IMG/VR virus record: IMGVR_UViG_3300029258_001887
Reading direction: 5' to 3' (one strand)
Length of the DNA: 64,000 nucleotides
Source of the DNA: a virus
A program made the position numbers and the translations under genes. Shown here piece after piece: positions 28,982 through 54,730 of the stretch; the first letter of the stretch is position 1, and every line of letters begins with the position of its first letter. The notes under the pieces were generated by a model. It saw nothing but the letters and a program-made list of their open reading frames with translations, was not told the origin of the DNA and did not search any database.

Positions 28982-29995
28982 CTAACTATCCTTTGGCATT
29001 GTTTCGCTGAGAGATAGTGGGCTCACCACAACGTACTTCACAGCAGACCGTAGTTGGTCAAGATTCTCAGCGCCACCCATCGCAAGACCAGACCTGATTC
29101 CCTTGATGTACTCGCCCACGACTTCTTCTGTCTGGCCTCTGTCCCCCATCTCGATCTCGACACCCTCTGGGGCAATGTCTGGCCTACCGGAAACGGCACG
29201 ACTGCTCATTCCACGGTACATCTTACGACCGTCAATACGGGGGGTCGCATTCGTTCCAGCCAACATGTACCCGATCATACACGCATCAGCGCCAGCCCAA
29301 AGAGCCTTGACCATATCTCCGCTGGTTCTAAGTCCACCATCAGCGATAATAGAAATGCCGCCATATCCAGCTTCTAGAGACTGGTATGCTTCTTGGATGG
29401 CTGCTAGCTGTGGATAACCAAACCCAGTGACTAGTCTGGTAGTACAAGCTGCTCCAGGGCCGATGCCGACCTTAATGGCATCCACACCATGATCTGCGAA
29501 TTTGCGGGTGGCCTCTGGGGTACACACGTTGCCAGCCATAATGATGAAGTGGTGGTGATCTTTCAGTCCTACCAAAATCTTGATGGCTTCATACATCTTT
29601 TCGTGATCGCCATGAGCCACATCCAGACAGATGACGTTGCATCCAGCGTTGAGTAGTAGCTGTGCCTTTTGGCCTACGTCCCCCTTGATGCCGATTGCAC
29701 ACCCAATGTTGTTTGCCCCTTGGTTGCGAGCCCAATGGATTTCGCGTATTTGTCTACCCATCTCTTCGTCTGGGTCAAGATTGATGTGACGGCTGAGGAT
29801 ACCGAGACCGCCGATCTTGTCCATGACTACGAGCATATACTTCCCGGTAATCGAATCCATTGGGGCGGAGATAAGTGGAGACCTCAACTCCAATTTGCCA
29901 AGATGCGTTGACACATCCGGCACTGTCCGCGAGTCCAGTTTGGAGTATTGCGGGACGAGCAAGATGTCGTTGAAACACAGCTTTCGATCCTGCAT
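28982..29995 (-). CDS. IMP dehydrogenase / GMP reductase (no CBS domains)
   Basis: F.DILLVP, SAPMD, DVAHG, AGNV, KVGIGPGAACTTR, IADGG, YRGMSS. Confidence 0.9.
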   Translation of the reverse strand: MQDRKLCFNDILLVPQYSKLDSRTVPDVSTHLGKLELRSPLISAPMDSITGKYMLVVMDKIGGLGILSRHINLDPDEEMGRQIREIHWARNQGANNIGCAIGIKGDVGQKAQLLLNAGCNVICLDVAHGDHEKMYEAIKILVGLKDHHHFIIMAGNVCTPEATRKFADHGVDAIKVGIGPGAACTTRLVTGFGYPQLAAIQEAYQSLEAGYGGISIIADGGLRTSGDMVKALWAGADACMIGYMLAGTNATPRIDGRKMYRGMSSRAVSGRPDIAPEGVEIEMGDRGQTEEVVGEYIKGIRSGLAMGGAENLDQLRSAVKYVVVSPLSLSETMPKDS

Positions 29996-31397: not shown

Positions 31398-32408
31398 TTA
31401 CAGTACGACCCGCCTCTTCAATTCACCAATGAACTTACTACCACTTTGACCCTCGGCAGCAGCCTTATTCCTAATGGCTTCGAGTGCCTTCGTGACGCTG
31501 TTCTTGACGGTAGCAGATTCGAAATCCTGCGGCGCAACACCGGCATCCAGGAATGTGTCCCTGAATTCAGTCAACATATTCTCAATTTCTCCGTCGCCAA
31601 AGATGTTCATCGACCGGAAGCGATCGACGTAGTTTCGGAAACAAGAGATTGACTTCGGAGTCAGCCGCTTACTGTCTGTTTCGTCGCCAAATGGTTTCCC
31701 GTTGATTCTGGCGGTCATCAACTCACAGAATCGCACAGTTTCATCACGCATAGCAGTGACATACTCGCCGACGAACTCACCAACTTCGTTCTGCATCTGC
31801 CGACGAAGTTCTGCCTCTTTCTCGTCTTGCACCTTCTGCCGGGCGACCACTTCCTCGGCGCTGGTGGCCTCGATAGACCCCATTCCAGCGATACGGAACG
31901 TGAACCAATCGAACTGGAACCTCTCCCGCAGGGCCTTCGGATTTGGCGGGTAGTGACCCTTTAGACACTTGTCCCAAAATTCTGGGTGTGCTTCCCTGAC
32001 CGTCTTGACAAGATCATCGAACCTGACGATGAAGCTATCGACACGCTGGAAAAACTCTTCCTTGAGCCCAGCAATCTGTTGTTCGACTGTCGGCAGCATC
32101 TTTGCCGGAACGAAGTGGGCGTTGGCAATACCAAACGGCACCGACCACCGTTCAAGCGCCTTACGGGCACGCTGCTCGATCTGTGTAAGGGCCTGGAGTT
32201 CCGACTTCGGAACCATCAGCTTCCTGCCGAGATTGACAATCTCTTCAGGGAGCCTATCAGGATCATACCCCACACGGACCAGATCGTGTCGGGTTAACAT
32301 CTTGCGGCCCGACCACATCTTGATCTTCAGGTTTACCAAACAACCAACTTCAAACAGGTTGATGGCATCCTGATCCGACTTCGGTTTCTGTGCTGTAGCC
32401 GTACTCAT
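31398..32408 (-). CDS. DUF3150-like protein
   Basis: VNL.I..WSGRK.L...D...P.....LG.K; follows the AAA ATPase. Confidence 0.65.
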   Translation of the reverse strand: MSTATAQKPKSDQDAINLFEVGCLVNLKIKMWSGRKMLTRHDLVRVGYDPDRLPEEIVNLGRKLMVPKSELQALTQIEQRARKALERWSVPFGIANAHFVPAKMLPTVEQQIAGLKEEFFQRVDSFIVRFDDLVKTVREAHPEFWDKCLKGHYPPNPKALRERFQFDWFTFRIAGMGSIEATSAEEVVARQKVQDEKEAELRRQMQNEVGEFVGEYVTAMRDETVRFCELMTARINGKPFGDETDSKRLTPKSISCFRNYVDRFRSMNIFGDGEIENMLTEFRDTFLDAGVAPQDFESATVKNSVTKALEAIRNKAAAEGQSGSKFIGELKRRVVL

Positions 32409-32418
32409 GGGTACCTCC

Positions 32419-33978
32419 TTAGCCTAGTGAGACTTTCCTTCCGCCGATCTTGGGTGGCGGACTCTTCTTCGGTGGGTTAGCAGGCTTAGCGTGGCGCTCG
32501 CACCACTGCTTAGTTTCTGCAATACGCTGTGCTTCCGTTTTTGACAACGGAATGATTTCTGGGACAGCACGATCCAGGTGTTTCTGTTCGAGTTGTCCAC
32601 CTTCTGCGAATGCCATCTTGAGACCGAGCTTGATGATTTGCTCAATATCAGCCCCGGTGTATCCATCTGTCGCCTTTGCCATTGCCTCAAGGTCGAACGA
32701 CTTGGGTTTCCTACCTCTCTTAGACAGGTGGATACAGAAGATTTCCTGTCGTTCGGTGATGGTAGGAAGGTCGAGCCCATAGATTTCATCGAAACGACCC
32801 TTACGACAAAACTCCGGTGGTAGCGATTGCACTTGGTTCGCAGTGGCAATCGCATAGACTGGGGAACTTCTGTCGTTTAACCACTTGATGAACGAGCCAA
32901 AGACACGACGGGACGCACCGCCGTCCATGTCTCCCGCACCGCCGAAGCCCTTCTCGATCTCGTCAAGCTGCAACACACATGGGGCTATGCTCTCCAGCAT
33001 CTTGATTGCTTCCCTCATGTTCTTCTCAGACTCGCCAACAAACTTGTCCATCAGATTGCCGACATCCATTGCAATAAGAGGAAGTCCAAGCTCCGACGCT
33101 ATCGCCAGAGACAGCAGTGTCTTACCACAGCCTGGGATACCAACAAGCATAAGACCCCGTGGAAACTCAATGCCGAACTCCCGTGCTTCGTGTGTGAAGC
33201 AGGGCTGGTCGAGCAGAACATGCTGTTTCAATGCGTCGTAACCACCGACTATCGACAATCCGCCCTTCGGCGGTTCTACATATGTCAATAGACCTGATGC
33301 CCTGATTACACCCGCCTTCTCCCTAACGATGGTTCGCACGGCGTCTGGATTCAAGTCCTTGTGCTTTCGCAGTGCCAATGCGACACGATCTACTGTCTGT
33401 TGGGAAGTCATGCCGCGACACGCATCGACGATTTGTGGTATCATATCCTTGTTCGGTTTGAACTTGGTTCCATCCGCCTTGGTAACGTCGCTACACACAA
33501 AGCCGATCCGCTCATTGATCTGATCGTTTCCCGGCAAGGCGAAGTCGATCTGAGTGATGTCATGTAGCAGAGGCTTTGGGACATCGAAGTCTGGCCCGAC
33601 GAAAACGATGGTCTGACGAACAGACGCCACGATACGACGAAGCTCATCCAGCCATCCGATGACGATATCGTAACCTGGGTAGGTTTCGTGTTTCAGATAC
33701 CCACCGAAGTCACGCAACACACAAATGACGCCCTCCGGGAAGTCGAGGATTGCCCGGAGTTGGTCTTCGACTGGGGCCGTTTCCTTGACATCACAAACTG
33801 ACGTGCCCTTCACATCCGTCCACCCCTGAGCGATAGACCAGATGTAGACTTTCCGGTCGGTAGCCTCAGCAACGTCTGCGATCTCGCTGATAGCACGATC
33901 TTTCTCAAAGGTGTCTACGTGCAGCAGAGCGTGACCTGAACAAACATAATCGCAGATATCTGTTTTGAAATCAGACAT
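32419..33978 (-). CDS. Ycf46-like AAA+ ATPase
   Basis: Degenerate N-terminal AAA domain, VGG...LK, GIPGCGKT, VGESE, LDEIEK, RKGRFDE. Confidence 0.88.
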   Translation of the reverse strand: MSDFKTDICDYVCSGHALLHVDTFEKDRAISEIADVAEATDRKVYIWSIAQGWTDVKGTSVCDVKETAPVEDQLRAILDFPEGVICVLRDFGGYLKHETYPGYDIVIGWLDELRRIVASVRQTIVFVGPDFDVPKPLLHDITQIDFALPGNDQINERIGFVCSDVTKADGTKFKPNKDMIPQIVDACRGMTSQQTVDRVALALRKHKDLNPDAVRTIVREKAGVIRASGLLTYVEPPKGGLSIVGGYDALKQHVLLDQPCFTHEAREFGIEFPRGLMLVGIPGCGKTLLSLAIASELGLPLIAMDVGNLMDKFVGESEKNMREAIKMLESIAPCVLQLDEIEKGFGGAGDMDGGASRRVFGSFIKWLNDRSSPVYAIATANQVQSLPPEFCRKGRFDEIYGLDLPTITERQEIFCIHLSKRGRKPKSFDLEAMAKATDGYTGADIEQIIKLGLKMAFAEGGQLEQKHLDRAVPEIIPLSKTEAQRIAETKQWCERHAKPANPPKKSPPPKIGGRKVSLG

Positions 33979-33988
33979 TGACATTCTC

Positions 33989-34261
33989 CTATTTAACGTG
34001 TTTCCAGCTTTGGCCGTTTTTAATTTTTTGGATGGTTGTGCGGCCAACACCGAACAGTTTCCCTATTTCTTTCTGTGTGTGCCCATCGTCTAACATCTCC
34101 CGTATTTGTGGGATCATCTTTTCCGAAAGTTTAGACTGTCCATGACTAGAACCTCGCGTTTCTACCCGACTGCTACCACCGACAATTCTTTTAACTCGTC
34201 CGAAATCAGAAACCTGGTAAACACCTTCATATTGTGGTATATCTTTCCAGGTTTCATTCAT
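33989..34261 (-). CDS. NUMOD4-HTH protein lacking the HNH core (internally deleted homing endonuclease)
   Basis: NUMOD4 start joined directly to the RG..H..SKL HTH tail seen in full-length paralogs. Confidence 0.7.
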   Translation of the reverse strand: MNETWKDIPQYEGVYQVSDFGRVKRIVGGSSRVETRGSSHGQSKLSEKMIPQIREMLDDGHTQKEIGKLFGVGRTTIQKIKNGQSWKHVK

Positions 34262-39423: not shown

Positions 39424-40188
39424 CTAAGCCTCCCTACATCGGGCGGCTTCGACTGTTTCCATACACAGGTGGCAGTTCATTCCCTCCGCAAGTTTTTCCG
39501 ACCGCCACCCCCACACATACTCCTGAGCGTCACCCCAAATGGTTTCGCTGAAGTGTTTCCACGGGAAGTACCCGAACGGGCATCTCCCTATCATCCCATC
39601 CTCCGTGATGATCATGTTGCACATTCGTTCACAGGAACACTGGACGGTTCCACGAGGCGCAAGACCGTTATCCCACGCCCTGCCGATTGGTATGATGTCG
39701 TCTATGCCCAAGTCTCCAGTCTGGACAAGTTCGACACCAAGATCATTTTCGTCTAGTAACTTGACAGCACGATCACCTGGAGAGCTATGCCACTGATCTT
39801 CGGACACAGCAACCTCAATGTGTTCGCACACAGCGACCAGTTCCTCCATTGCGCCAACGAATCTGCCTATGTCGGCGACTGTGTTTGCGAAGAATCCGTT
39901 GGTGACCAACCTAATCCGGTCTCGACCGCTGGATAATGCTACCAGCATTTCCGGGTAGTTGTCCAAAACGGTTACTTCGCCGCCCATGATATTTAGTACG
40001 ATGGTCTTGGGCACCTACCGATTGATTGCTGCACAGGTTTCGAGAGACATTTGACCCACACACTCAGGGCCAGACCGAAAACAGCAATGCCGACATCTTT
40101 GGCTACACTGATTGGTTACTCGCAGTATACAGGCGTTCGACGCGGTATCGCCGTTCCATCTCTGAAACCACTCGTCGTGACTGGTCAT
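39424..40188 (-). pseudogene. Radical SAM protein interrupted by an in-frame TAG
   Basis: Manual translation: TNQCSQRCRHC...AAINR*VPKTIVLNIMGGE, TNG, C-terminal Cys cluster. TAG at 40015-40017. Confidence 0.75.
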
Positions 40189-40556
40189 CTCGGTTGCCCC
40201 CTCTTCACCAAATCACACACAGGCCAAACTGGTTCGAGTTACACGACTTTCCCGCAGCCCATTTCCTCCACAATCTCCAGCGTTGACCCAAGAAACCACA
40301 CCCCGCCCTGAGATTCTGGCCGGTGGAGCGTTTCTCTATGGGTAAAGCGGACCTTACACCAGACCCGCCCCTTTTCAGACAGATGCGGAGCGTGTGGCCT
40401 GCGGCAGATGTGCCACCCAAGACGGAACGCATACCCTTTGCGACGATGACTTTCGGCTTGGTATACGACCCCCGGCACCAACTTCTGACGACAGTTGATG
40501 AACAGGGGTCCATACGTACCATCCTTGCGCTTACGGAGAAGCTTGTACCCGATCAT

Positions 40557-41216
40557 CTACATTGCTCCCATCTCATTCGTCAGCAGGTTGACATCGATTT
40601 CCTTATCGACATCACACCCACGCAACCACTTGGCGAACTGTGCGACCCTCAATCCTGCCGAGACGTTAGCACAGTAGATGGTTGTCTTCGCAGTACACGC
40701 TCCCTGGTACGCCTCCGCTGCTGGGAACAGTGTGGTCGCATAGTGCTCACGGGAAGCCTCGTCATGAACGGTGAAGATTCGCACATACTCTGCGCTCATT
40801 CGACCGTCGATGAAAAGGTCTGCCCGATTCCTGACTGCCTCGAAGATGGCTTTCCTGGTGTCGATCTTGTCAACACAGCAGAACATGACGCCACCAGTAA
40901 AGTCGATCGATCTGAACTTTCGGTTGATGACTTCGATCTGGATTGCCGAGTTGATAGAGACACACAGGTCTCTCGTGGCTTCGACCTTCGGCCTGCCAAG
41001 ATCAGCCTCGTGGTATCCCTGCGCCGCAAGATTCTCTGGGCGTACCGTATCAGGATCGATGAGAGTAATCCTTGGTACCCCGATGGCTGCCAACTGAAGT
41101 GCTACCTGACGACCGCCAGCACCGACGCCGACCACCGTTACCCTCGTGGTTTGCAGCTTCTCTGGCGGAATCAGTTCTCTCTGACGGATGTCTCTATTTT
41201 CGATTACTGTACTCAT
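40557..41216 (-). CDS. E1-like ThiF/MoeB adenylyltransferase
   Basis: RQ, GVGAGG, D.D.V..ENL, K, CVD...R, DGR, downstream Cys (GACT). ATGA overlap with JAB. Confidence 0.9.
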   Translation of the reverse strand: MSTVIENRDIRQRELIPPEKLQTTRVTVVGVGAGGRQVALQLAAIGVPRITLIDPDTVRPENLAAQGYHEADLGRPKVEATRDLCVSINSAIQIEVINRKFRSIDFTGGVMFCCVDKIDTRKAIFEAVRNRADLFIDGRMSAEYVRIFTVHDEASREHYATTLFPAAEAYQGACTAKTTIYCANVSAGLRVAQFAKWLRGCDVDKEIDVNLLTNEMGAM

Positions 41217-42163
41217 ACCGCTTCCTCCATTGCCAGTTCGCGTTCGTCTGCGTACCTGTTGGCCCACAACACGACTTGCGTTACCCAGTGTTCGTTCGGA
41301 GGGGTTGTTTCGATGAACTCGTCATCACCCTCCAGGTCTTCGACGTACCACTGTTCCCTGATGGGGTCATAGAAAAACCACACACCATCTTCGTCATCCC
41401 AGTATGCAACGTCGCCGTTGGAGTCCCAATGACAATCGATGTCGTCTACGGTAGAACTCCCATCGCCTGCTGCTGCAATCTGTCGATCAAGTTCTTCCTG
41501 TTGGGTTGTCCACCTGTCGTGTTCTTCACACCACCAGAGGGGGTCTTCGTAGCCGTTGGCTGGAAAGGAACCAGCGCCACTAGACGCCGCACCTTCCTTT
41601 CCTGTCATGCGGAACTTCTGTTCCACGACCTTGGCCTTGTACTCCGTTTCCCATGCCTGCGTGTCGGTGCCACCGAACGGGACTGTCCAATCGACGGCGA
41701 CTTTGATTTCTTTGATCACTCCAGGCCCGACGTTGACTTTCAGACGACAGTACGCCGCGCCACCCTCGGCGATGATGAACATGATCGCCCAGTTCGGGTG
41801 AGAAAACGCTGCTACGAAATTCTTCTCGTCTGTACCTGACGGGGTGGGACTGTTCCCCGGATGTGTGTGGATGAGGATGTTGGAATAGGCCCACGGTGGG
41901 AGCCCAGTATCGAGCATCCTGTCCATATAATCAGCGCCATCTTCTGGGTCGAGGTCGAAACTAGCACCTGTGCATTCCTGTTTGATCAGGACGAAATCGG
42001 TCACTAGTAGTGGGTCTTCCGTGGCTGTGACACCGTATCCGGCGACTTCTGTATCCCCACGGTCCCTCATCCACAAGAGTTTCGCCCAGGCGTATGGCGT
42101 GAACCGTAGCTGTTCTCCGAACGTCATTTTCGGGGTCATGAACTCAGACATTTTTGTCTCCAT
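41213..42163 (-). CDS. JAB/JAMM metallo-isopeptidase with acidic tail
   Basis: E(V.G) and HTHPGNSPTPSGTD = HxH-x7-S-x2-D. Confidence 0.88.
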   Translation of the reverse strand: METKMSEFMTPKMTFGEQLRFTPYAWAKLLWMRDRGDTEVAGYGVTATEDPLLVTDFVLIKQECTGASFDLDPEDGADYMDRMLDTGLPPWAYSNILIHTHPGNSPTPSGTDEKNFVAAFSHPNWAIMFIIAEGGAAYCRLKVNVGPGVIKEIKVAVDWTVPFGGTDTQAWETEYKAKVVEQKFRMTGKEGAASSGAGSFPANGYEDPLWWCEEHDRWTTQQEELDRQIAAAGDGSSTVDDIDCHWDSNGDVAYWDDEDGVWFFYDPIREQWYVEDLEGDDEFIETTPPNEHWVTQVVLWANRYADERELAMEEAV

Positions 42164-42214
42164 TGTGGTTGTCCCTGGTGTATAATACAGCAGGCGGATT
42201 TACTGCCAGGGAGG

Positions 42215-42898
42215 TTGATTGTGAGAACCAAAGCAAGCAAAGAAAAAGAAAAGGCTCGACAAAGACAGCAGTACCAAGAACGACTAGCTCAAGGTCTGTG
42301 CCCCAGATGCGGCGGAACGCCCGCCACTGAAAAAAAGTTTTGTGCTTCTTGCTCCACAAGGACGTGTGGTCGAGATAAGCAGCGACGACTTGACCGTCTG
42401 GCGAAGGGGTTGTGTCCTCAATGTGGAAAACGAGAATGTGCCCCAGGTCGGAAGAAATGTGTCGTCTGTGGTGAAGCCGGTCGCAGGAACGTGAAAGCAC
42501 GAGAATCCCGACTGGTGAACGACGGTCTTTGTACTCGTTGTGGCCAACATCCGTTTCTTCAGTCCATGACCGACAGGACTTCTCGGTATAGAGAATGTCA
42601 GGAGTGCTACCTAAAGCGCACTGCCAAGAACAATCTGGGTTCTGAAGATTTTGCGCCATTACTGCTGGCCAAGTTAGAGGCCCAGCAGTGGATGTGTCCC
42701 TATACCGACGAGATATTGGTTCTCGGGCACAACGACTCGATTGACCACATTCTCCCAAGGTCAAGATTTCCTGACTTGGCGACTGACCCAGAGAACGTCC
42801 AGTGGGTGTTGCGTGATGTCAATTCAATGAAGAACCAACTCACCAACGATGAGTTCCTGGGACTTGTTGCCATCATCTACCGTCATCGGTTACGATGA
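42215..42898 (+). CDS. HNH endonuclease with repeated GLCxxCG zinc fingers
   Basis: Three GLC.xCG repeats; CPYT, SIDHILP, N..W....N..K. Confidence 0.8.
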   Translation: MIVRTKASKEKEKARQRQQYQERLAQGLCPRCGGTPATEKKFCASCSTRTCGRDKQRRLDRLAKGLCPQCGKRECAPGRKKCVVCGEAGRRNVKARESRLVNDGLCTRCGQHPFLQSMTDRTSRYRECQECYLKRTAKNNLGSEDFAPLLLAKLEAQQWMCPYTDEILVLGHNDSIDHILPRSRFPDLATDPENVQWVLRDVNSMKNQLTNDEFLGLVAIIYRHRLR

Positions 42899-44209
42899 CT
42901 CATTGGTCACTCCCTCTAGTAGACAGTTGTGTTCACGCTCGCAGGAACCGCACATTGGAGTCCCACAGTGCTCACATGAGTTATCGTTACACCTATTACA
43001 GACGGTCTTGTCGCATTCAGAACACGTCTCCTGACACCCCTTGCAGATGTCCTGGCTACATTCCTCGCATCTTTCATCGACACAGGCCGAGCAACACTCG
43101 TCTCCACAACACCCGCATGTGATTGTGCAGTCCTGACACACGGAATCTCCGCAGTACGCACATGCCGACTTGCACTCGTCACAATATGCCCCGACGCAGA
43201 TAGCGCATCCGCTCACACACGACGAACACATTTGGTTATCGCAATCATGACATGTGCTTCCACATCCATGACAGAGTGTCTCTTGACAACCATAACACGT
43301 TGTGCTACATTCACCGCAACGCCACTCGCCGCATTCCGTGCAGCATCCACCACCGACATCGCAATACTCGCAGTAGTTGTTCTGACATCCTTCGCACCAG
43401 CAACCGCTTTCGTAGCTACGCCACTCTTCGCATCCCTCACAGTAAAACTGACCCTCATGATCTGGATCGTACCATTCACTCAATCGTTCGTATGGCGAAG
43501 CCTCGTTATACGTTCGCAGAACTGCTTCGATGACCCTGAAGTAGTCCTCTAGCCGTCCTTGACACAGAGCATCCTGAGAAGGAAGGCCACCAGCGCCGAT
43601 ACAGAGCTTACCGCCGGACACATGTGGATGAGAGTATCCGCCTGGAGATTCAATTTCGTTGATCGATTCGATACGAAGACTGTCCAGGGGATGTGAGAGG
43701 TTGACGTGTATCCAGAAATCCCCCAGGAACACTTCCTCGTGCTCATCGCTCAGGGTAACATCCTTGACCAACACGGACAGGACATTGCACCTGAACTTGA
43801 CTTCTGGCCACGCGCTGTTTATTATCCGAATTTCGTCGATTGCTTCTTTGGGCGACAGCACGGTGACGATCTGTTTGGTTACCAATGACTTGAGCATTGC
43901 TGTGGCACTCTGTGTGCCGTGTATGACATCATACCCAAGGTCTGGGATCAGAGCGGTGGCGATTCTCTCATACGCCGATGCACAGACAATACCCATGTGT
44001 GGTTCTGTGTCCCACTCGTTTTGCTGGATTCTCTGCGTTGAGCCAGTGAAGAACCTTCCAGCCCACATCTCCATCTGTGACGCTTTGTCGTTCACCCTAC
44101 GGAGACAGTCGAGGATAGACGTTTTCCCAGAATCCACAGGAGACCGGGCCTGAGACAGCAACCAATCCCTGTATTTTATGGCCGCACGCCGTATCAGCTT
44201 TTCGTTCAT
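42890..44209 (-). CDS. E2/UBC-like protein with long C-terminal CxxC-repeat tail
   Basis: HPHVSGGKLC.G resembles the E2 HPN...G.ICL active site; about 20 CxxC units follow. Confidence 0.72.
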   Translation of the reverse strand: MNEKLIRRAAIKYRDWLLSQARSPVDSGKTSILDCLRRVNDKASQMEMWAGRFFTGSTQRIQQNEWDTEPHMGIVCASAYERIATALIPDLGYDVIHGTQSATAMLKSLVTKQIVTVLSPKEAIDEIRIINSAWPEVKFRCNVLSVLVKDVTLSDEHEEVFLGDFWIHVNLSHPLDSLRIESINEIESPGGYSHPHVSGGKLCIGAGGLPSQDALCQGRLEDYFRVIEAVLRTYNEASPYERLSEWYDPDHEGQFYCEGCEEWRSYESGCWCEGCQNNYCEYCDVGGGCCTECGEWRCGECSTTCYGCQETLCHGCGSTCHDCDNQMCSSCVSGCAICVGAYCDECKSACAYCGDSVCQDCTITCGCCGDECCSACVDERCEECSQDICKGCQETCSECDKTVCNRCNDNSCEHCGTPMCGSCEREHNCLLEGVTNESS

Positions 44210-44504
44210 GGTGAATCCCCTTTATACAGGCTGATGAGCCTAACTTTGCCGAAAACAGGCTGATTCGCCTGACCTATTCTGGTTCGTCTGGCCTAGCCAA
44301 GCACTCCGCGAGCCCATCTACATAATCTTCCAAGTGTAGAAGGACTTCGCTGTATCCGAACGCATGACCATCTTCCCATGCCATGTGGGACAGCCACCCA
44401 CGGAATTTCTTGGGGACTCGCGCCAGAAGCTTGGTTTGCCTTCGTGTAAACTCTTCCTCAGTCATTCGGGGTACTGGACCGCGTTGCTGGGTCATTATTG
44501 ACTC

Positions 44505-44550
44505 CGAAGAAAGAGGGGCGGGGGGTGCGTTCCCCCCGGCCCCCGCCTCC
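44505..44550 (-). terminator. Terminator-like hairpin downstream of the Ubl gene
   Basis: GGGGC(C)GGGGGG-loop-CCCCCCGCCCC followed by TCTTTCTT. Confidence 0.6.
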
Positions 44551-44573
44551 ACCAGACGCCCTACGGCGTCATT

Positions 44574-44807
44574 CTACTCACCCTCGACCTTCGTCGGAGC
44601 GAGAGAAACCCGATCGCCGTCCTGGAGCACGTAGTCCCGGTGCGCCTCGACGGTCGTGCCGTTCGCACGAACCCGAATCGTGAACTCATCCGGGTCGCCA
44701 TCGAAGGAAACCTCCAGGAACTTCTCAAGAGTCGTACCCTCGACCACAGGAACACGCACGGGCAGGCCCGCTCCATCATTCGTTACCAGCGTTACCTCGA
44801 TCATCAT
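44574..44807 (-). CDS. Ubiquitin-like (beta-grasp, ThiS/MoaD-type) protein
   Basis: 77 aa, EGTTL..L, L.DGDRV, ends KVEG-E. Confidence 0.82.
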   Translation of the reverse strand: MMIEVTLVTNDGAGLPVRVPVVEGTTLEKFLEVSFDGDPDEFTIRVRANGTTVEAHRDYVLQDGDRVSLAPTKVEGE

Positions 44808-45871
44808 CGATCTCCCAAAAAGACGGGGCTATGTTTACCCCTTTGCCATAGCGACTACACGTCGCCAAACCATCCGACTATCTCTGGTTTGAAGGGTGGA
44901 ACACCCACCCCACATTGACCACAACGTTCTTTGAGTGCCTTGATTTCCTGCTGCAATCCTGCGACCGTTGCCGGTTCGCCCGTCTGCTCCCGCTCAAGGA
45001 ACATGTAAAGCAGGCTCAGATAAGCGCGAAGTTCAGCTTTTGTCCTTGGACTTGCCACGCCTACGCCCCTTCCTGTCGGTTTTTGCCCGTGGCTTCGGCT
45101 TCTCCGGTTCCTGTTCGGTCTTCAGGATTTCGACCTTCCGCGCCTGAGTAGCCCGGTCCCACTTGCGACGAGTCTTATCGCTGGCATACTCATACGTCGT
45201 CGCCTCTACCGCCAGTGCCAGCAGTTCATCGCAACTCTTGGCTTGCTTGATCCGATCCAACATACTGACTGGCTTGAACTCGACTGCTACCGACATACCA
45301 TACCTCCAATCATGTAGGCCAAACCCCGCCGAATGGCCAGGAATCCCATAGGGCTGCGCCCTTACCGGTTCCAGAGCGTCCCCACCCTTGCCCAGTCGGA
45401 ACGCTATCAATTCATGACGTAGAAGTCCATGTCGTCACCACATTCGGGACAGATGTGGAATCCGGCGGTAGACATCTCACACAGAATGTCGTTGATTGTC
45501 CCCTCGAACGTGGTGGTTTCCTGACACTCGTCACATCTGTATTCGATTTCGAACACGTAGTCAGCAGGATGTGTTGACATGGTTACTCTCCGTATTCTTT
45601 GTATGACATGTTGAACCAACCTTCACGGAAGGCCAGGGCGACCGCTTTCCAGCCAGCCATCTGAACCACTTGGTGTGCTTCACCAACTTCGTAGTGCTGC
45701 GCCACTTCGGTTGACCAGACTGGCAAATCCCAAACCCCAGTCCGTTCCAACTTTTGCAGATCACGACAGACCTGATCCGCTTCGGTGATGGACAGGACTT
45801 GTTTGTGGATGATTTTTTGTCCAGTGCTCATCATGTTCGTTTCCCCTAAAACACACACGGGCCAAACTGGT

Positions 45872-46423
45872 TCAGATCACGAGACTTTTTTGCAGCCCCA
45901 TGACCAGCAGAGACTCAATGCTGACTTCCCTCTCCGGTGGCTCTGGAGGACCATAGTCCTGACAATAATCCGACTCGTATTCCGGCGTCACTAGGTCGGT
46001 AACCACATCCACTTCAACGAGGTCGCTGTGCTCGAACAACCCCTTCACCGTAGCCGGGACACAAGCGTCACCGTAGACGCCGCAGACGAGAAGATGGTTG
46101 GACCACTTCGGATGCCCCCTCAGACAATCGACGACTTCCTCGCCGCCGTCCTCACAGTTCTTAATGACCGTATCGACGTGTGGGTAGTCGCCAATCTCAT
46201 CCACGATCTGTTGCGTCGTGCGACCCAAACCACCAAACTCAACCAGAACGATTCCCCACTGGTTGGTTTTAGCCAGACGCACCAAGTCGCAGGTTCCGAT
46301 GATGAGTTCCTGGAATGAACCATCATACCCTCGGCAAGAATCTTTGCCGATGAAGTAATCCTGCATGTCTACGATTACGACTGTTCTTTCCGGTGTGTGT
46401 TCGGTGCTGTCGCTAGACATCAT
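45872..46423 (-). CDS. Isochorismatase/nicotinamidase-family cysteine hydrolase
   Basis: VIVDMQ, K, CGV...ACV..T. Confidence 0.75.
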   Translation of the reverse strand: MMSSDSTEHTPERTVVIVDMQDYFIGKDSCRGYDGSFQELIIGTCDLVRLAKTNQWGIVLVEFGGLGRTTQQIVDEIGDYPHVDTVIKNCEDGGEEVVDCLRGHPKWSNHLLVCGVYGDACVPATVKGLFEHSDLVEVDVVTDLVTPEYESDYCQDYGPPEPPEREVSIESLLVMGLQKSLVI

Positions 46424-46876
46424 CTTGCGGAGCCGCTGATGCGCCAGATACCGAGCCCTCTCGAATGCGTGCATAGTTAGTCCCCTATGGAGCGCCTTAC
46501 TTACCCGTGCGGTGAGAAGAACAACTCTTCTTCTCCGTTGATATATGACGACAGTGCGTCGAGGGTTTCCACTGAATTGTCCGGCAGAGACAGCAATTTG
46601 CCTATCTCTCTGATCTGCTGTTTCTCTTCTTCGGTACGATTCCAGTAGCCGTCGCCGACGATACACTGAAGTTCATCCGCCGCTCTATCTTTAGCGACCT
46701 GGACCTTCTGTTCAATTGTCAGCACAGTGAATCTCCTAACAAAAGAAGTTGGAAGCCCACCCTTTGTTTACACACCCTTTACCGCAGCGGTGGGCTACTG
46801 CGTCGTGGGGTGAATATTCATTTTTTTCTCCAAAATCGAACCCAGATGGTGTATAATAGACACGAAGGAGGTTCGA

Positions 46877-48988: not shown

Positions 48989-49615
48989 TCACTTGCTCAC
49001 TTTCATAGGACGCGGTGCCATGCGCCACCCGCACAATAGACAGGGATCGTAGTCTGGTAACCGCAACGGTGCTTTCGGCAACTTGAAATGACGGACCACG
49101 ATTTCAACGATGCGATCGATCTGATCGCACATCTCTTGGTCCAGGTAGTCTGGCGAGACACAAAAGACAGCAGCAGTGATCGGCGTTTTCAACTCCGACA
49201 GACGATGTTTGCCACGAACGGAATGTACTATACCTCTGTCGGACAACCATGTTTCTGCTTCCGGCCAATCGCAGAATTCGCCATGCCCGTGATGGACCCA
49301 TGTATACCGACGATACCACTCTGGCGGGATTCGATATCCCCAGACGCCACAGTTGACTTCGGCCCCATCCGGGTCATATGGAGCACAATTGACATAGTAG
49401 TCGTGGTGCTCATCAATGTTGACGAGATTGAACGGGACAGGGACGGTGCCATTTCTTACCCATCTACGCAGTTGCCCGAGAAATTCGTGGTGTTCGACTG
49501 TCATGATAGTAGGGGTCTTGCGTGGAATGTGCTTGAGCAACCCACGAATCTTGCTGGCAGGATCGTCCGAGCCATTGAGCCAATCGAGATCGACACTTAC
49601 GACTGTACCTTTCAT
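48989..49615 (-). CDS. UPF0489/arginase-deacetylase-like protein
   Basis: SVDLD, EHH, NIDEHHD, SPDY. Confidence 0.55.
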   Translation of the reverse strand: MKGTVVSVDLDWLNGSDDPASKIRGLLKHIPRKTPTIMTVEHHEFLGQLRRWVRNGTVPVPFNLVNIDEHHDYYVNCAPYDPDGAEVNCGVWGYRIPPEWYRRYTWVHHGHGEFCDWPEAETWLSDRGIVHSVRGKHRLSELKTPITAAVFCVSPDYLDQEMCDQIDRIVEIVVRHFKLPKAPLRLPDYDPCLLCGWRMAPRPMKVSK

Positions 49616-50097
49616 GCCACCACCCCCTCTTTGCGAAGTTGTTCCACTTCGAGAATGTCATCCATCAAAGGCGTTAGCGGAATTCCTTCGTATTGATCCC
49701 AGCTACCAAATTCAGTAAAGTTTTGGTACAGGACAATCCCCACACACTGCGTGTTGTTGTAGACTGCCTCGACAGCGTTGCGGATATTTCTGACTGTATC
49801 GCCAGACGAGATAAGGTCATCGACAATAACGTATCTGCCGAGTTGTTTGTCTGACGACTCTATCCGTCTTTGGGAATGACTTCCGCCATCCATATACGAA
49901 CTTTCCGCATCCCACAGCTTACGAACGATGGCGAAAGGAATACCAGTCCGCATTGACACAGCCATCAGGACTACTGCGCCACTGATTCCTGTACCGACTA
50001 AGCATTCAGGACGATCGAACTTGGGGTCGTTCAGCGCATGACAGATTGCATCGACAGTCGCTTCCGGCGACTGGAATGCATTGCTGAAATAGCACAT
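49612..50097 (-). CDS. Type I phosphoribosyltransferase
   Basis: G..SG, VRK, VIVDDLISSGDT PRPP loop. Confidence 0.85.
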   Translation of the reverse strand: MCYFSNAFQSPEATVDAICHALNDPKFDRPECLVGTGISGAVVLMAVSMRTGIPFAIVRKLWDAESSYMDGGSHSQRRIESSDKQLGRYVIVDDLISSGDTVRNIRNAVEAVYNNTQCVGIVLYQNFTEFGSWDQYEGIPLTPLMDDILEVEQLRKEGVVA

Positions 50098-54297: not shown

Positions 54298-54730
54298 TTT
54301 GTACCCCCTTTGTAGTACAAGACGTTAGCTAGCGCCACCACACGACGATAGCCCACAAGATTCAAGGAATCAGGTACGCTTTTTGTATCTAGCGCCACCC
54401 TCACCCACTCTGCCCCACGCGCCACCACCAACCCCCACCGACCAGTGCAGAATCGTATATAGGAACACACACAGGCCAAACTAGACTAGGATCGCTCTTG
54501 ACTTTGCAGTGCTTCGCAACCCCGTTTTTGACCCTGTGAGCCCCGATTTTGCGCCAGTCAGCTATCATGCCCCCACTAACAAGAACACCAAGCCCCACGC
54601 AAGCCTGAGCGAGCCAGCGTTTCTTGAAGCTCGATTTTGTACCTGCATCAGAGGCACACCAAGACTACCCCGAAAAACCCCGGAAAGTCTCAAAAAAACC
54701 CCGGATAGTTTCTCAGGACAAGGTGTAGTT

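Follow-up and report, generated by a model that had tools for sequence, protein, structure and literature searches.

A cassette of four genes, encoding a ubiquitin-like protein (Ubl) precursor, an E2-like protein, a JAB peptidase and a minimal E1, probably constitutes a working Ubl protein-conjugation cascade of a phage. We infer the chemical steps of this cascade from sequence and fold, and at that level the original prediction of a phage-borne conjugation system is supported overall. The same order, Ubl-E2-JAB-E1, recurs at 10 viral loci and some 20 bacterial ones, far more often than chance would allow.

The carrier is an uncultivated marine or sediment phage, lytic-type, with a genome of roughly 170 kb. 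The window, namely the whole 64-kb stretch of DNA analyzed here, is viral and not part of a cellular chromosome, a point that had been flagged for confirmation: it is collinear with a CheckV-complete 168-kb IMG/VR genome bearing a terminase, and five complete 165-181 kb relatives carry the cassette. The cassette is placed in the genome half with replication, nucleotide metabolism and small ORFs, outside the structural module. All five of the predicted ORFs (Ubl, small ORF, E2-like, JAB and E1) are present on the minus strand, and are listed here with the neighboring genes.

44574 to 44807, minus strand: Ubl precursor, 77 aa; putative ThiS/MoaD-like beta-grasp; C-terminal P-x-K-V-E-G76 plus one extra residue, E77
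44274 to 44552, minus strand: small ORF, 92 aa; variable slot between Ubl and E2
42890 to 44209, minus strand: E2-like protein, 439 aa; three regions, as follows
43871 to 44209, minus strand: E2-like residues 1-113, predicted long helical hairpin (helices 3-56 and 77-110 in the AF2 model of the whole protein)
43460 to 43867, minus strand: E2-like residues 115-250, predicted UBC-fold catalytic core; HPH194-196 at 43622-43630, candidate catalytic Cys203 at 43601-43603
42914 to 43450, minus strand: E2-like residues 254-432, Cys-rich tail; about 11 units of CxxC-x4-CxxC-x3
42215 to 42898, plus strand: HNH-type endonuclease ORF, 227 aa; antisense, between E2 and JAB; Pfam HNH_4 E=0.0047
41213 to 42163, minus strand: JAB/JAMM metallopeptidase, 316 aa; JAB domain at about residues 19-179 (41627-42109), motif codons 41828-41869
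40557 to 41216, minus strand: minimal E1, 219 aa; single ThiF/MoeB-type adenylation domain without a separate catalytic-Cys domain; Pfam ThiF 9.3e-26
32419 to 34050, minus strand: AAA ATPase (classic); Pfam AAA 7.7e-28 and AAA_lid_3
31398 to 32408, minus strand: DUF3150 protein; Pfam DUF3150 9.7e-24

The five genes had been described as a co-oriented run. Their minus-strand order holds, but they are not strictly contiguous, because the HNH-type ORF sits on the plus strand between E2 and JAB. This ORF, omitted from the original prediction, matches the PADLOC PtuB/PDC-M01B HNH models down to 7e-7. It occurs at the same spot in L001/L003 and L004 only and is missing in L005-L012, where the E2-JAB gap measures 12-30 nt; it is a sporadic homing-endonuclease-like passenger, outside the system. 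Cluster membership likewise stands for the Ubl, E2-like, JAB and E1 genes and not for the small ORF, which gave no family match in profile searches and is ruled out as a conserved part since it is conserved solely in the closest relative (L005/G002); the same slot in other relatives holds unrelated small ORFs or is empty. The AAA/DUF3150 pair (31398 to 34050) is possibly associated with the cassette. Its ATPase is nearest to CDC48, PAN and FtsH in NCBIfam. The pair adjoins the cassette in L002, L020 and L032 and also lies near it in phages, and the AAA gene without DUF3150 is found near the cassette in L013, L023 and L028. Cultured phages without the cassette, however, have members of this AAA family too.

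The Ubl is assigned as a putative beta-grasp protein from weak profile matches. The copy in the window matches Pfam ThiS with E=0.019, 7 of 32 homologues give ThiS matches (best 1e-4), and MoaD/ThiS are the nearest Atlas clusters. It has 93 homologues (identity 43-97%) and is under strong constraint. In each of the 35 homologues, from phages and bacteria, whose sequence was followed to the stop codon, P-x-K-[IV]-[ED]-G is succeeded by a variable tail, 1-83 residues long, most bacterial copies terminating in G-A. Given that a tail follows the conserved glycine in every case, the Ubl is a precursor, for which trimming is obligatory.

Domain modeling and structure searches indicate that the product of 42890-44209 does possess a UBC fold. 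The model of the core (residues 115-250) has a pLDDT of 91 and a pTM of 0.84. The best Foldseek matches are UbcH7, Ubc13 and Rad6 (probability up to 0.92, E about 0.08), VIA-align superimposes 118 residues of the core on 1zdn_A at an rmsd of 3.8 and a Z of 7.6, and E2, UEV or RWD folds make up almost the whole of its top 50. The fold-match scores are moderate; what makes the assignment convincing is the uniformity of the matches rather than the height of any single score. The HPH and Cys residues singled out by the original prediction, HPH194-196 and C203, show no variation across sets of 30 and 28 homologues, and this HPH-x6-Cys motif lies in the loop that joins beta4 to helix 2, its canonical place; the HPx motif precedes Cys203 and no conserved His follows it. 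The core family comprises 3045 cluster representatives, with no model in Pfam, NCBIfam or PADLOC.

Structural matches to the hairpin (residues 1-113) are generic coiled-coil hairpins only. The CxxC pairs of the tail vary little or not at all, and homologues differ by the gain or loss of entire units, bacterial copies carrying a shorter tail. The model renders the tail as a series of short beta-hairpins, weak profile matches are to FYVE, PHD, RING and B-box (E 0.002-0.1), and Foldseek matched LIM rods. The tail is thus predicted to form an extended multi-zinc rod, a candidate target-binding or E3-like arm.

The JAMM motif claimed for the JAB peptidase proves intact, with E39 and H99-x-H101-x7-S109-x2-D112 conserved in 18 homologues and the five named residues invariant in the alignment. 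Profile searches match Pfam Prok-JAB (1.3e-4) and PADLOC JAB (9e-5); in the PDB, 6fjv, an Rpn11-like protein from Caldiarchaeum, ranks first (E 9e-4) and Rpn11 next. An acidic, Trp-rich C-terminal extension (residues 180-316) is found in phage copies only, and bacterial copies align to residues 19-179 only. In line with the predicted coupling to E1, the JAB stop and the E1 start overlap as ATGA at 41213-41216. The E1 start is the ATG at 41216; the GTG at 41267, which opens a longer E1 ORF, is an unlikely start.

The predicted identity of the E1 agrees with its Pfam ThiF match (9e-26), and the best curated matches are ThiF and MoeB. Profile matches between 5e-15 and 3e-11 include PaaA, the active adenylation domains of UBA7/UBA6, ThiF, MoeB, MccB, UBA5 and BubCD. 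The invariant residues are G30, G32, G35, R36, D54, D56, N62, K77, D116, R139 and C174. Cys174 (40695-40697), present in 26 of 27 sequences, is a candidate thioester site; its placement in the crossover loop is one we infer, because the alignments to MoeB and ThiF end before it.

Together these elements suggest a five-step route. First, the JAB peptidase would trim the Ubl precursor back to Gly76. That glycine would next be adenylated by the small E1, which probably forms a homodimer as MoeB, ThiF and UBA5 do and would probably hold the Ubl as a thioester on Cys174. The Ubl would pass to Cys203 of the E2, with HPH in the role of the eukaryotic HPN, and the E2 would transfer it onto lysines of targets that the E2 itself selects through the fast-evolving, length-variable multi-zinc tail and/or the N-terminal helical hairpin, a separate E3 being unneeded. 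Finally, the JAB peptidase may also undo the tagging.

The cassette is not confined to phages. A scan of GTDB verified the suggested resemblance to Planctomycetota clusters: MAGs of Planctomycetota and Victivallales carry 1-5 copies of the four-gene set per genome, its gene order unchanged. DUF2958, DUF3150, AAA, GHKL-type ATPase and serine recombinase genes flank these copies, contexts that look mobile-element-borne rather than those of chromosomal defence genes; no terminase was found near them in 5 genomes, and PLSDB plasmids gave no match. The E1 tree unites the phage copies in a single group with strong support (100/100). They have been kept though E2 diverged to 33-48% identity, while the Ubl remains at 54-83%, as expected if the modifier is a hub and its specificity subunit is adaptive.

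Comparison with characterized systems led us to reject the cassette as Bil, Bub, CBASS or PRTRC on the defining features of those systems. Bil operons (BilABCD, Type I/II; bacterial ISG15-like, anti-phage), which are experimentally proven, share the order Ubl-E2-JAB-E1 (10.1101/2023.09.26.559546) in four separate genes. E3 is absent from both, so that the E2 is the presumed target chooser in each, and in both the Ubl can carry a residue beyond the reactive Gly that has to come off, such as Ala98 of E. aridi BilA or the alanine of the G-A ending found in most bacterial copies of the phage-type cassette. However, Bil and canonical E1s have a mobile Cys domain, whereas the phage E1 is a single 219-aa domain without one. 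The Bil E2 has a conserved His after the Cys (CEHH type), whereas the phage E2 has a eukaryote-like HPx before it, none conserved after, and adds the helical hairpin and multi-zinc tail. Two beta-grasp domains are common in BilA, against one in the phage Ubl, and Bil is a host defence system while the phage cassette rides on phage and mobile elements. PDB sequence searches with the E2-like, E1 and JAB proteins returned no Bil chains.

A short E1 of one adenylation domain, with the candidate Cys inside it, is shared with UBA5 (which acts with UFC1) and ThiF/MoeB (profile matches 4.5e-12 for UBA5, about 1e-12 for ThiF and MoeB), but the phage E2 is marked by HPx-Cys, the canonical E2 signature, rather than being of the UFC1 type, the phage operon adds a JAB peptidase and a Ubl precursor, and ThiF and MoeB act without any E2. 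Caldiarchaeum/Asgard-type operons (Ub, E1, E2, small RING, Rpn11-like JAB) share the canonical E2 motif order, the closest solved JAB match, and Cys-rich, possibly treble-clef-like zinc modules accompanying the E2. There, in contrast, the small RING is separate, whereas in the phage the E2 itself ends in a long rod of tandem CxxC zinc modules; the phage E1 is minimal, and the phage Ubl is by sequence ThiS/MoaD-like, not ubiquitin-like. Bub (6E/DUF6527) likewise combines E1, E2 and Ubl with a JAB that cuts the Ubl precursor, as proposed in the phage, and its operons also tend to be in mobile elements; but Bub uses Ser/Tyr oxyesters without catalytic cysteines, fused proteins and a DUF6527 serine protease, whereas the phage cassette has conserved cysteines and no DUF6527. 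PRTRC cassettes we take to correspond to class 6d. They and class 6d of Iyer 2006 comprise a mobile-element Ubl, JAB, E1 and E2 set (plasmids, integrative elements), as does the phage-type cassette, but the phage E1 scores 33.9 bits against a PRTRC_ThiF cutoff of 144.75, the Ubl, E2-like and JAB proteins match no PRTRC model, and ahead of the Cys, where the phage E2 has HPH, the class 6d E2 has no His.

Three other readings of the cassette were weighed. The cascade could be self-directed: by tagging proteins that the phage itself encodes, such as replication or virion-assembly factors, it would act as a switch for maturation or timing. Phage precedent exists in the Ubl and JAB domains of lambda-type tail assembly (PMC1779556), and the cassette is conserved vertically within the phage clade; we nevertheless consider this unlikely, given homologous cassettes in bacterial elements with no virion genes found and no terminase nearby in the 5 genomes, the position outside the structural module, and a fast-evolving E2 tail that better suits a conflict interface. 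Rather less probable is a sulfur-carrier or small-molecule pathway, in which a ThiS/MoaD-type carrier is activated by the E1 and thiocarboxylated as the sulfur source of a modified nucleoside, cofactor or peptide, or in which the Ubl is ligated to a small molecule; the role of the JAB would be limited to trimming, like that of Mec+ on CysO or QbsD on QbsE, with the E2-like protein as a scaffold. ThiS/MoaD are indeed the sole profile matches of the Ubl, the E1 is as short as its curated matches ThiF and MoeB, and the reading is kept alive by a radical-SAM-like gene immediately following E1 in three lineages of phage (the window, L005 and L006). That gene, however, is missing from most relatives and has an in-frame stop in the window, the Ubl ends in E-G plus a tail and not in the G-G of sulfur carriers, every cassette has an E2, whose canonical HPx-Cys active site includes a Cys that never varies, and, consistent with the original claim that sulfur-transfer partners are lacking nearby, the scanned neighbors include no rhodanese, ThiG, MoaE or cysteine desulfurase. 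That the cassette is a passenger or decaying set acquired from a host mobile element and functionless for the phage, as the HNH gene inserted mid-cassette and the stop codon in the adjacent radical-SAM gene might suggest, is very improbable given four intact ORFs with invariant catalytic residues, retention across five complete phage genomes at 33-79% protein identity, and the strong constraint on the Ubl.

The conjugation cascade proposed here could plausibly serve to tag proteins of the host or of rival elements, in takeover, anti-defence or inter-element competition. With its tag precursor, zinc-rod E2, JAB and minimal E1, this Ubl-tagging kit looks complete and previously uncatalogued, and its relatives reside on mobile elements of the Planctomycetota.

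The window belongs to a tailed phage (Caudoviricetes) genome, and its PHROG matches include the phage-type genes for DNA polymerase, exonuclease, primase, DnaB, UvsX and ribonucleotide reductase. The cassette is found at 11 loci in IMG/VR, five of them in genomes of 165-181 kb (G001-G005) that CheckV scores as 100% complete; direct terminal repeats are present in three of these five, and an ORF of about 720 aa contains a match to the terminase large subunit. No match to the HK97 capsid model PF05065 appears in the five relatives. With one of them, G002 (168,332 bp), 67 of the 102 window ORFs match, their order kept from 99 kb round to 6.7 kb. Collinearity with this complete genome, the phage replication genes and the terminase in complete relatives together settle that the contig is viral, as the original prediction of a phage-borne conjugation system supposed. 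Four sequencing runs of sediment and seawater metagenomes, belonging to three studies and possibly including the source sample, each carry the exact cassette DNA on a single contig, with zero differences. The E1 proteins of the phage copies form one group in the E1 tree (100/100 support), consistent with a single origin and long retention of the phage cassettes. Among the GenBank phages of INPHARED there is no DNA match to the cassette and no protein match to either the phage or the bacterial-type E2, and the PLSDB plasmids contain no cassette match.

Features of the cassette and its surroundings
44574-44807, minus strand: Ubl, 77 aa, first gene of the cassette
44274-44552, minus strand: small ORF, 92 aa, between Ubl and E2
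42890-44209, minus strand: E2-like protein, 439 aa, cassette gene
42215-42898, plus strand: HNH endonuclease ORF, 227 aa, with several CxxC zinc ribbons; antisense, fills the gap between E2 and JAB
41213-42163, minus strand: JAB peptidase, 316 aa, cassette gene
40557-41216, minus strand: E1, 219 aa, ATG start at 41216
31398-34050, minus strand: Cdc48/PAN/FtsH-like classic AAA ATPase and DUF3150 protein, 6.5 kb from the cassette
40214-40233, 45852-45871 and 54466-54485, minus strand: copies of the motif ACCAGTTTGGCCyGTGTGTG, the first two reaching 26 nt

The five co-oriented ORFs are all present as originally read, and the JAB stop and the E1 start share an ATGA overlap, consistent with the proposed translational coupling of the two genes. 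What the first reading left unmentioned is the opposite-strand HNH ORF in the gap between E2 and JAB, which overlaps the 3' end of the E2 gene by 9 nt. Just two other phage lineages have an HNH gene at this position (40-45% identity); in the remaining phage lineages, all of which are without it, E2 and JAB are spaced by 12-30 nt. The HNH gene behaves like a homing endonuclease, and we exclude it from the system because its occurrence is sporadic. The 92-aa ORF was likewise rejected as a component, with a homologue only in the closest relative (locus L005 in G002) and no match in PADLOC, NCBIfam or Pfam. Immediately next to the E1 stop is a 105-aa ORF (40239-40556) that has no homologue in any fetched locus and is treated as lineage-specific.

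Directly downstream of E1 lies a radical-SAM-like gene (39424-40188, minus strand) with a CxxxCxxC motif within its first 57 aa and a weak YydG-type match; homologues follow E1 also in L005 and in a further locus, L006. This gene is broken by a single in-frame TAG (40015-40017), identical in the contigs of the four runs; possible explanations are a pseudogene, read-through of the stop or recoding. The 20-nt motif occurs in three intergenic copies on the coding strand against 0.03 expected and may be a phage promoter or leader element; a promoter and terminator scan gave chance-level counts. Around the cassette are auxiliary genes of nucleotide or NAD-salvage type, namely an IMPDH/GMP-reductase (4e-80), an isochorismatase/nicotinamidase-like protein and a phosphoribosyltransferase (28982-29995, 45872-46666 and 49612-50097, minus strand).

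The E2-like protein escapes the sequence libraries. Curated E2 models (Pfam UQ_con, Prok-E2_A-E and E2-CBASS; PADLOC; NCBIfam) give no match at E<=0.1 to the window protein and none at E<=0.01 to ten family members, in which no Pfam domain covers the core. The nearest clusters in the Atlas feature search are UQ_con, UFC1 and E2-CBASS, at a low score of 0.75-0.77. A model of the whole protein (pLDDT 85) yields fold matches only for an N-terminal helical hairpin and a Cys-rich tail; since these swamp the search, residues 115-250 were modelled alone, using 46 homologues (pLDDT 91, pTM 0.84). The resulting core contains a helix (residues 6-19), four strands and helices at 91-102, 106-117 and 129-132, so that the predicted order of alpha1, four strands, loop and three helices is UBC topology. 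For this core Foldseek returns E2 enzymes almost exclusively (UbcH7, Ubc13, Rad6, Ubc9), with UbcH7 as the top match at a probability of 0.92, and in a VIA-align search of 48,161 chains nearly all of the 50 highest-ranked matches are E2, UEV or RWD folds, led by 1zdn_A (Z 7.6, 118 of 136 residues, rmsd 3.8 A); each of these scores is moderate, and we place weight on the uniformity of the match lists. On this modelling, residues 115-250 are a UBC fold, and the E2-like assignment made for 42890-44209 from its HPH-Cys motif stands on two independent structure searches whose matches are almost all E2, UEV or RWD.

The motif itself, H194-P195-H196-x6-C203, is invariant across 30 full-length and 28 core sequences of phage and bacterial origin and sits in the loop after strand 4 and before helix 2. 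This is the arrangement of the canonical E2 HPN...Cys site with His in place of Asn. After C203, G205, G218, R219 and D222 are conserved, and there is no conserved His. About 11 units of CxxC-x4-CxxC-x3 make up the last 180 residues, and entire units have been lost or gained among homologues; this tail, which weakly matches FYVE, PHD, RING, B-box and LIM domains, is predicted to form a string of zinc knuckles. Among 1.84 billion proteins, the core profile detects 3045 cluster representatives at E<=1e-3, of which 788 reach E<=1e-30. Other domain arrangements occur in related proteins: P0224 (783 aa) carries a UBC core (489-625) fused to an N-terminal GYF_2 domain and a trypsin-like protease domain, and a 733-aa family member, P0158, has two UBC cores.

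The E1 sequence matches Pfam ThiF at 9.3e-26 (90.9 bits, cutoff 28.1), making it by sequence a clear ThiF/MoeB-type adenylyltransferase, and a profile of 19 homologues recovers PaaA, the active adenylation domains of UBA7 and UBA6, ThiF, MoeB, MccB, UBA5 and BubCD (5e-15 to 3e-11). The protein is a single ThiF domain (residues 36-219 of the long ORF, which opens at GTG 41267) without an inserted catalytic-cysteine domain, and in form it resembles UBA5 and ThiF. Its Rossmann GxGxxG and adenylation-site residues are invariant (G30, G32, G35, R36, D54, D56, N62, K77, D116). Cys174, present in 26 of 27 homologues, probably occupies the crossover-loop Cys position of ThiF, MoeB and UBA5, the alignments themselves ending before it.

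The JAMM site of the JAB peptidase (E39, H99-x-H101-x7-S109-x2-D112) is invariant in 18 homologues. Against Pfam Prok-JAB the protein scores 22.2 bits, slightly below the cutoff of 25. Rpn11-like enzymes are nearest to it: its best matches of known structure are the Caldiarchaeum Rpn11-like protein (E 9e-4) and then Rpn11, both weak. Residues 180-316 form an acidic, Trp-rich extension found only in the phage copies.

For the Ubl of the window, above-threshold matches are lacking in PADLOC, NCBIfam and Pfam, and its profile finds nothing significant among PDB sequences; it matches Pfam ThiS weakly (E 0.019), but 7 of 32 homologues match ThiS at up to 1e-4, and its nearest Atlas clusters are MoaD/ThiS. 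Its C-terminus, P-x-K-[IV]-[ED]-G followed by 1-83 unrelated residues, is found in 35 of 35 homologues read to a stop codon, the exception in the alignment being a metagenomic protein, P0087, that terminates in ...KIQPR. Because the glycine is conserved under a variable tail, we read Ubl as a modifier precursor that would need exposure by a peptidase, as has been shown for Bil and Bub. The longest pro-peptide seen is in L005 (5040-5516), where the Ubl ORF of 159 aa runs about 80 residues past the conserved Gly. Among the phages, identity to the window is 54-83% for Ubl (ranked most conserved), 61-79% for E1, 44-56% for JAB and 33-48% for E2.

Outside phages, a GTDB scan with the Ubl alignment gives 22 loci, almost all of which belong to Planctomycetota (Phycisphaerae, Planctomycetaceae, Pirellulales), which bears out the resemblance originally suggested. 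Two loci lie in one Victivallales MAG, and single weak Ubl-only matches occur in an Anaerolineae MAG and a Planctomycetales MAG. The order Ubl-E2-JAB-E1 is kept in every bacterial locus of sufficient length, some on contigs as long as 795 kb; compared with the phage copies, the bacterial E2 is shorter (~340-380 aa) and JAB is without its extension. Two forms of flank are seen: either a GHKL-type ATPase together with DUF2958 and several small genes, or DUF2997 together with a classic AAA ATPase, DUF3150 and small genes. A serine recombinase lies in the flank of one locus, and no terminase was seen near the bacterial cassettes in five genomes. Five genomes hold 1, 1, 2, 3 and 5 copies. Because of this copy number and gene content, we interpret the bacterial cassettes as probable integrated mobile elements of an unfamiliar kind. 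The 4.8-Mb MAG of Planctomycetes bacterium GWF2_41_51 (G010) has five E2-core copies (contigs C8, C13, C64, C70 and C131), four of them full cassettes (L017, L025, L029, L030). An upstream block of GHKL-type ATPase, DUF2958 and small ORFs is repeated at L017, L025 and partly L030, which suggests a proliferating integrated element.

Among the known systems, Bil shares with the cassette separate genes in the order Ubl-E2-JAB-E1 (10.1101/2023.09.26.559546) and the lack of an E3. The Bil E1, however, combines inactive and active adenylation domains with an inserted catalytic-Cys domain, whereas the cassette E1 is a single domain of 219 aa, and the Bil E2 has a conserved His C-terminal to its Cys (Cys138/His151, CEHH type) that the cassette E2 lacks. 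Type II CBASS, with Cap2 and Cap3, was rejected, since the cassette E1 and E2 are separate and not an E2-E1 fusion. PADLOC E1-E2 models match the cassette E1 only, within their E1 halves; the match to the Cap3 model is 14.9 bits, its cutoff being 200; and no CD-NTase, the Cap2 conjugation substrate, was seen among the neighbours scanned. Bub (6E/DUF6527) pairs a DUF6527 serine protease with an E1 and E2 without catalytic Cys, and the cassette is opposite on both counts, having no DUF6527 match and retaining conserved cysteines. A ThiS/MoaD sulfur-carrier system also fits poorly: the Ubl C-terminus is E/D-G plus a tail rather than Gly-Gly, an E2 is always present, and ThiG, MoaE and rhodanese partners are absent among the proteins scanned in 28-50 kb of the window, in line with the original prediction. 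PRTRC fails, with PRTRC_ThiF at 33.9 bits against a cutoff of 144.75 and no matches of Ubl, E2 or JAB to the NCBIfam PRTRC models. As Bil, CBASS, Bub and PRTRC each fail on defining features, we file the cassette separately within the prokaryotic Ubl-E1-E2-JAB conjugation operons, set apart by its carriers and by the fusion of E2 to a zinc rod. In crAss001-like phages, adjacent 'metalloprotease-domain' and ThiF-like proteins lie in the replication module (2712-4600 of L036, the crAss-like phage cr85_1, NC_055883.1); the ThiF-like protein is ~29% identical to the cassette E1, and the two may be a reduced, unstudied JAB-E1 pair in cultured phages.

We infer each chemical step, and the role of the cassette, as follows. 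JAB would trim the Ubl precursor at Gly76; E1, probably as a dimer, would adenylate Ubl and probably hold it on Cys174; and Ubl would then pass from E1 to Cys203 of E2. E2 would place Ubl on target lysines, chosen through its variable zinc tail, its helical hairpin or both, and would need no E3 for this choice, as has been proposed for Bil. A conserved Ubl alongside a fast-evolving E2 tail, a site outside the structural module and carriage by phage and non-phage elements alike suggest a role common to invading elements, namely taking over the host, countering its defences or competing with rival elements.

The AAA ATPase and DUF3150 pair accompanies the cassette in G002 also, and the AAA gene adjoins or lies near the cassette in six PVC or viral loci. 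DUF3150 joins it in three of these (L002, L020, L032), the AAA gene being alone in the others (L013, L023, L028), and DUF2997 is also present in L002, L013 and L028. Cultured phages of mycobacteria, Vibrio and Pseudomonas that lack the cassette also carry this AAA family (e.g., Mycobacterium phage Corndog gp96). We consider it improbable that the Ubl tag is read by this co-travelling Cdc48/PAN-like ATPase with DUF3150, in a self-contained 'tag-and-unfold' pathway that removes host or rival proteins; if true, it would be a bacterial-virus analogue of ubiquitin-Cdc48/proteasome or Pup-Mpa targeting in PVC phages and mobile elements.

Ubl conjugation in bacteria (CBASS Cap2, Bil, Bub) is currently seen as host immunity against phages. 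The literature searched describes no bacteriophage with a complete Ubl cascade, and earlier comparative surveys might include the family. A jumbo-phage survey of 224 genomes mentions neither JAB, ThiF nor E1-like proteins, a 2026 review lists ubiquitin signalling for giant eukaryotic viruses only, and for Asgard viruses only E1-like genes are reported. A full cascade kept stably in a clade of large phages, with sister copies in probable multi-copy mobile elements of Planctomycetota and Victivallales, would put the same chemistry on the attacker side. The E2 family, with its 3045 cluster representatives, escapes current domain libraries and combines a eukaryote-like HPx-Cys site, a built-in multi-zinc arm and a minimal UBA5/ThiF-like E1. 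If active, the cassette would offer a compact four-protein system in which to study how targets are chosen without an E3, a new type of tool for phage takeover or anti-defence, and a further data point on the pre-eukaryotic diversification of E2 and E1 architectures.
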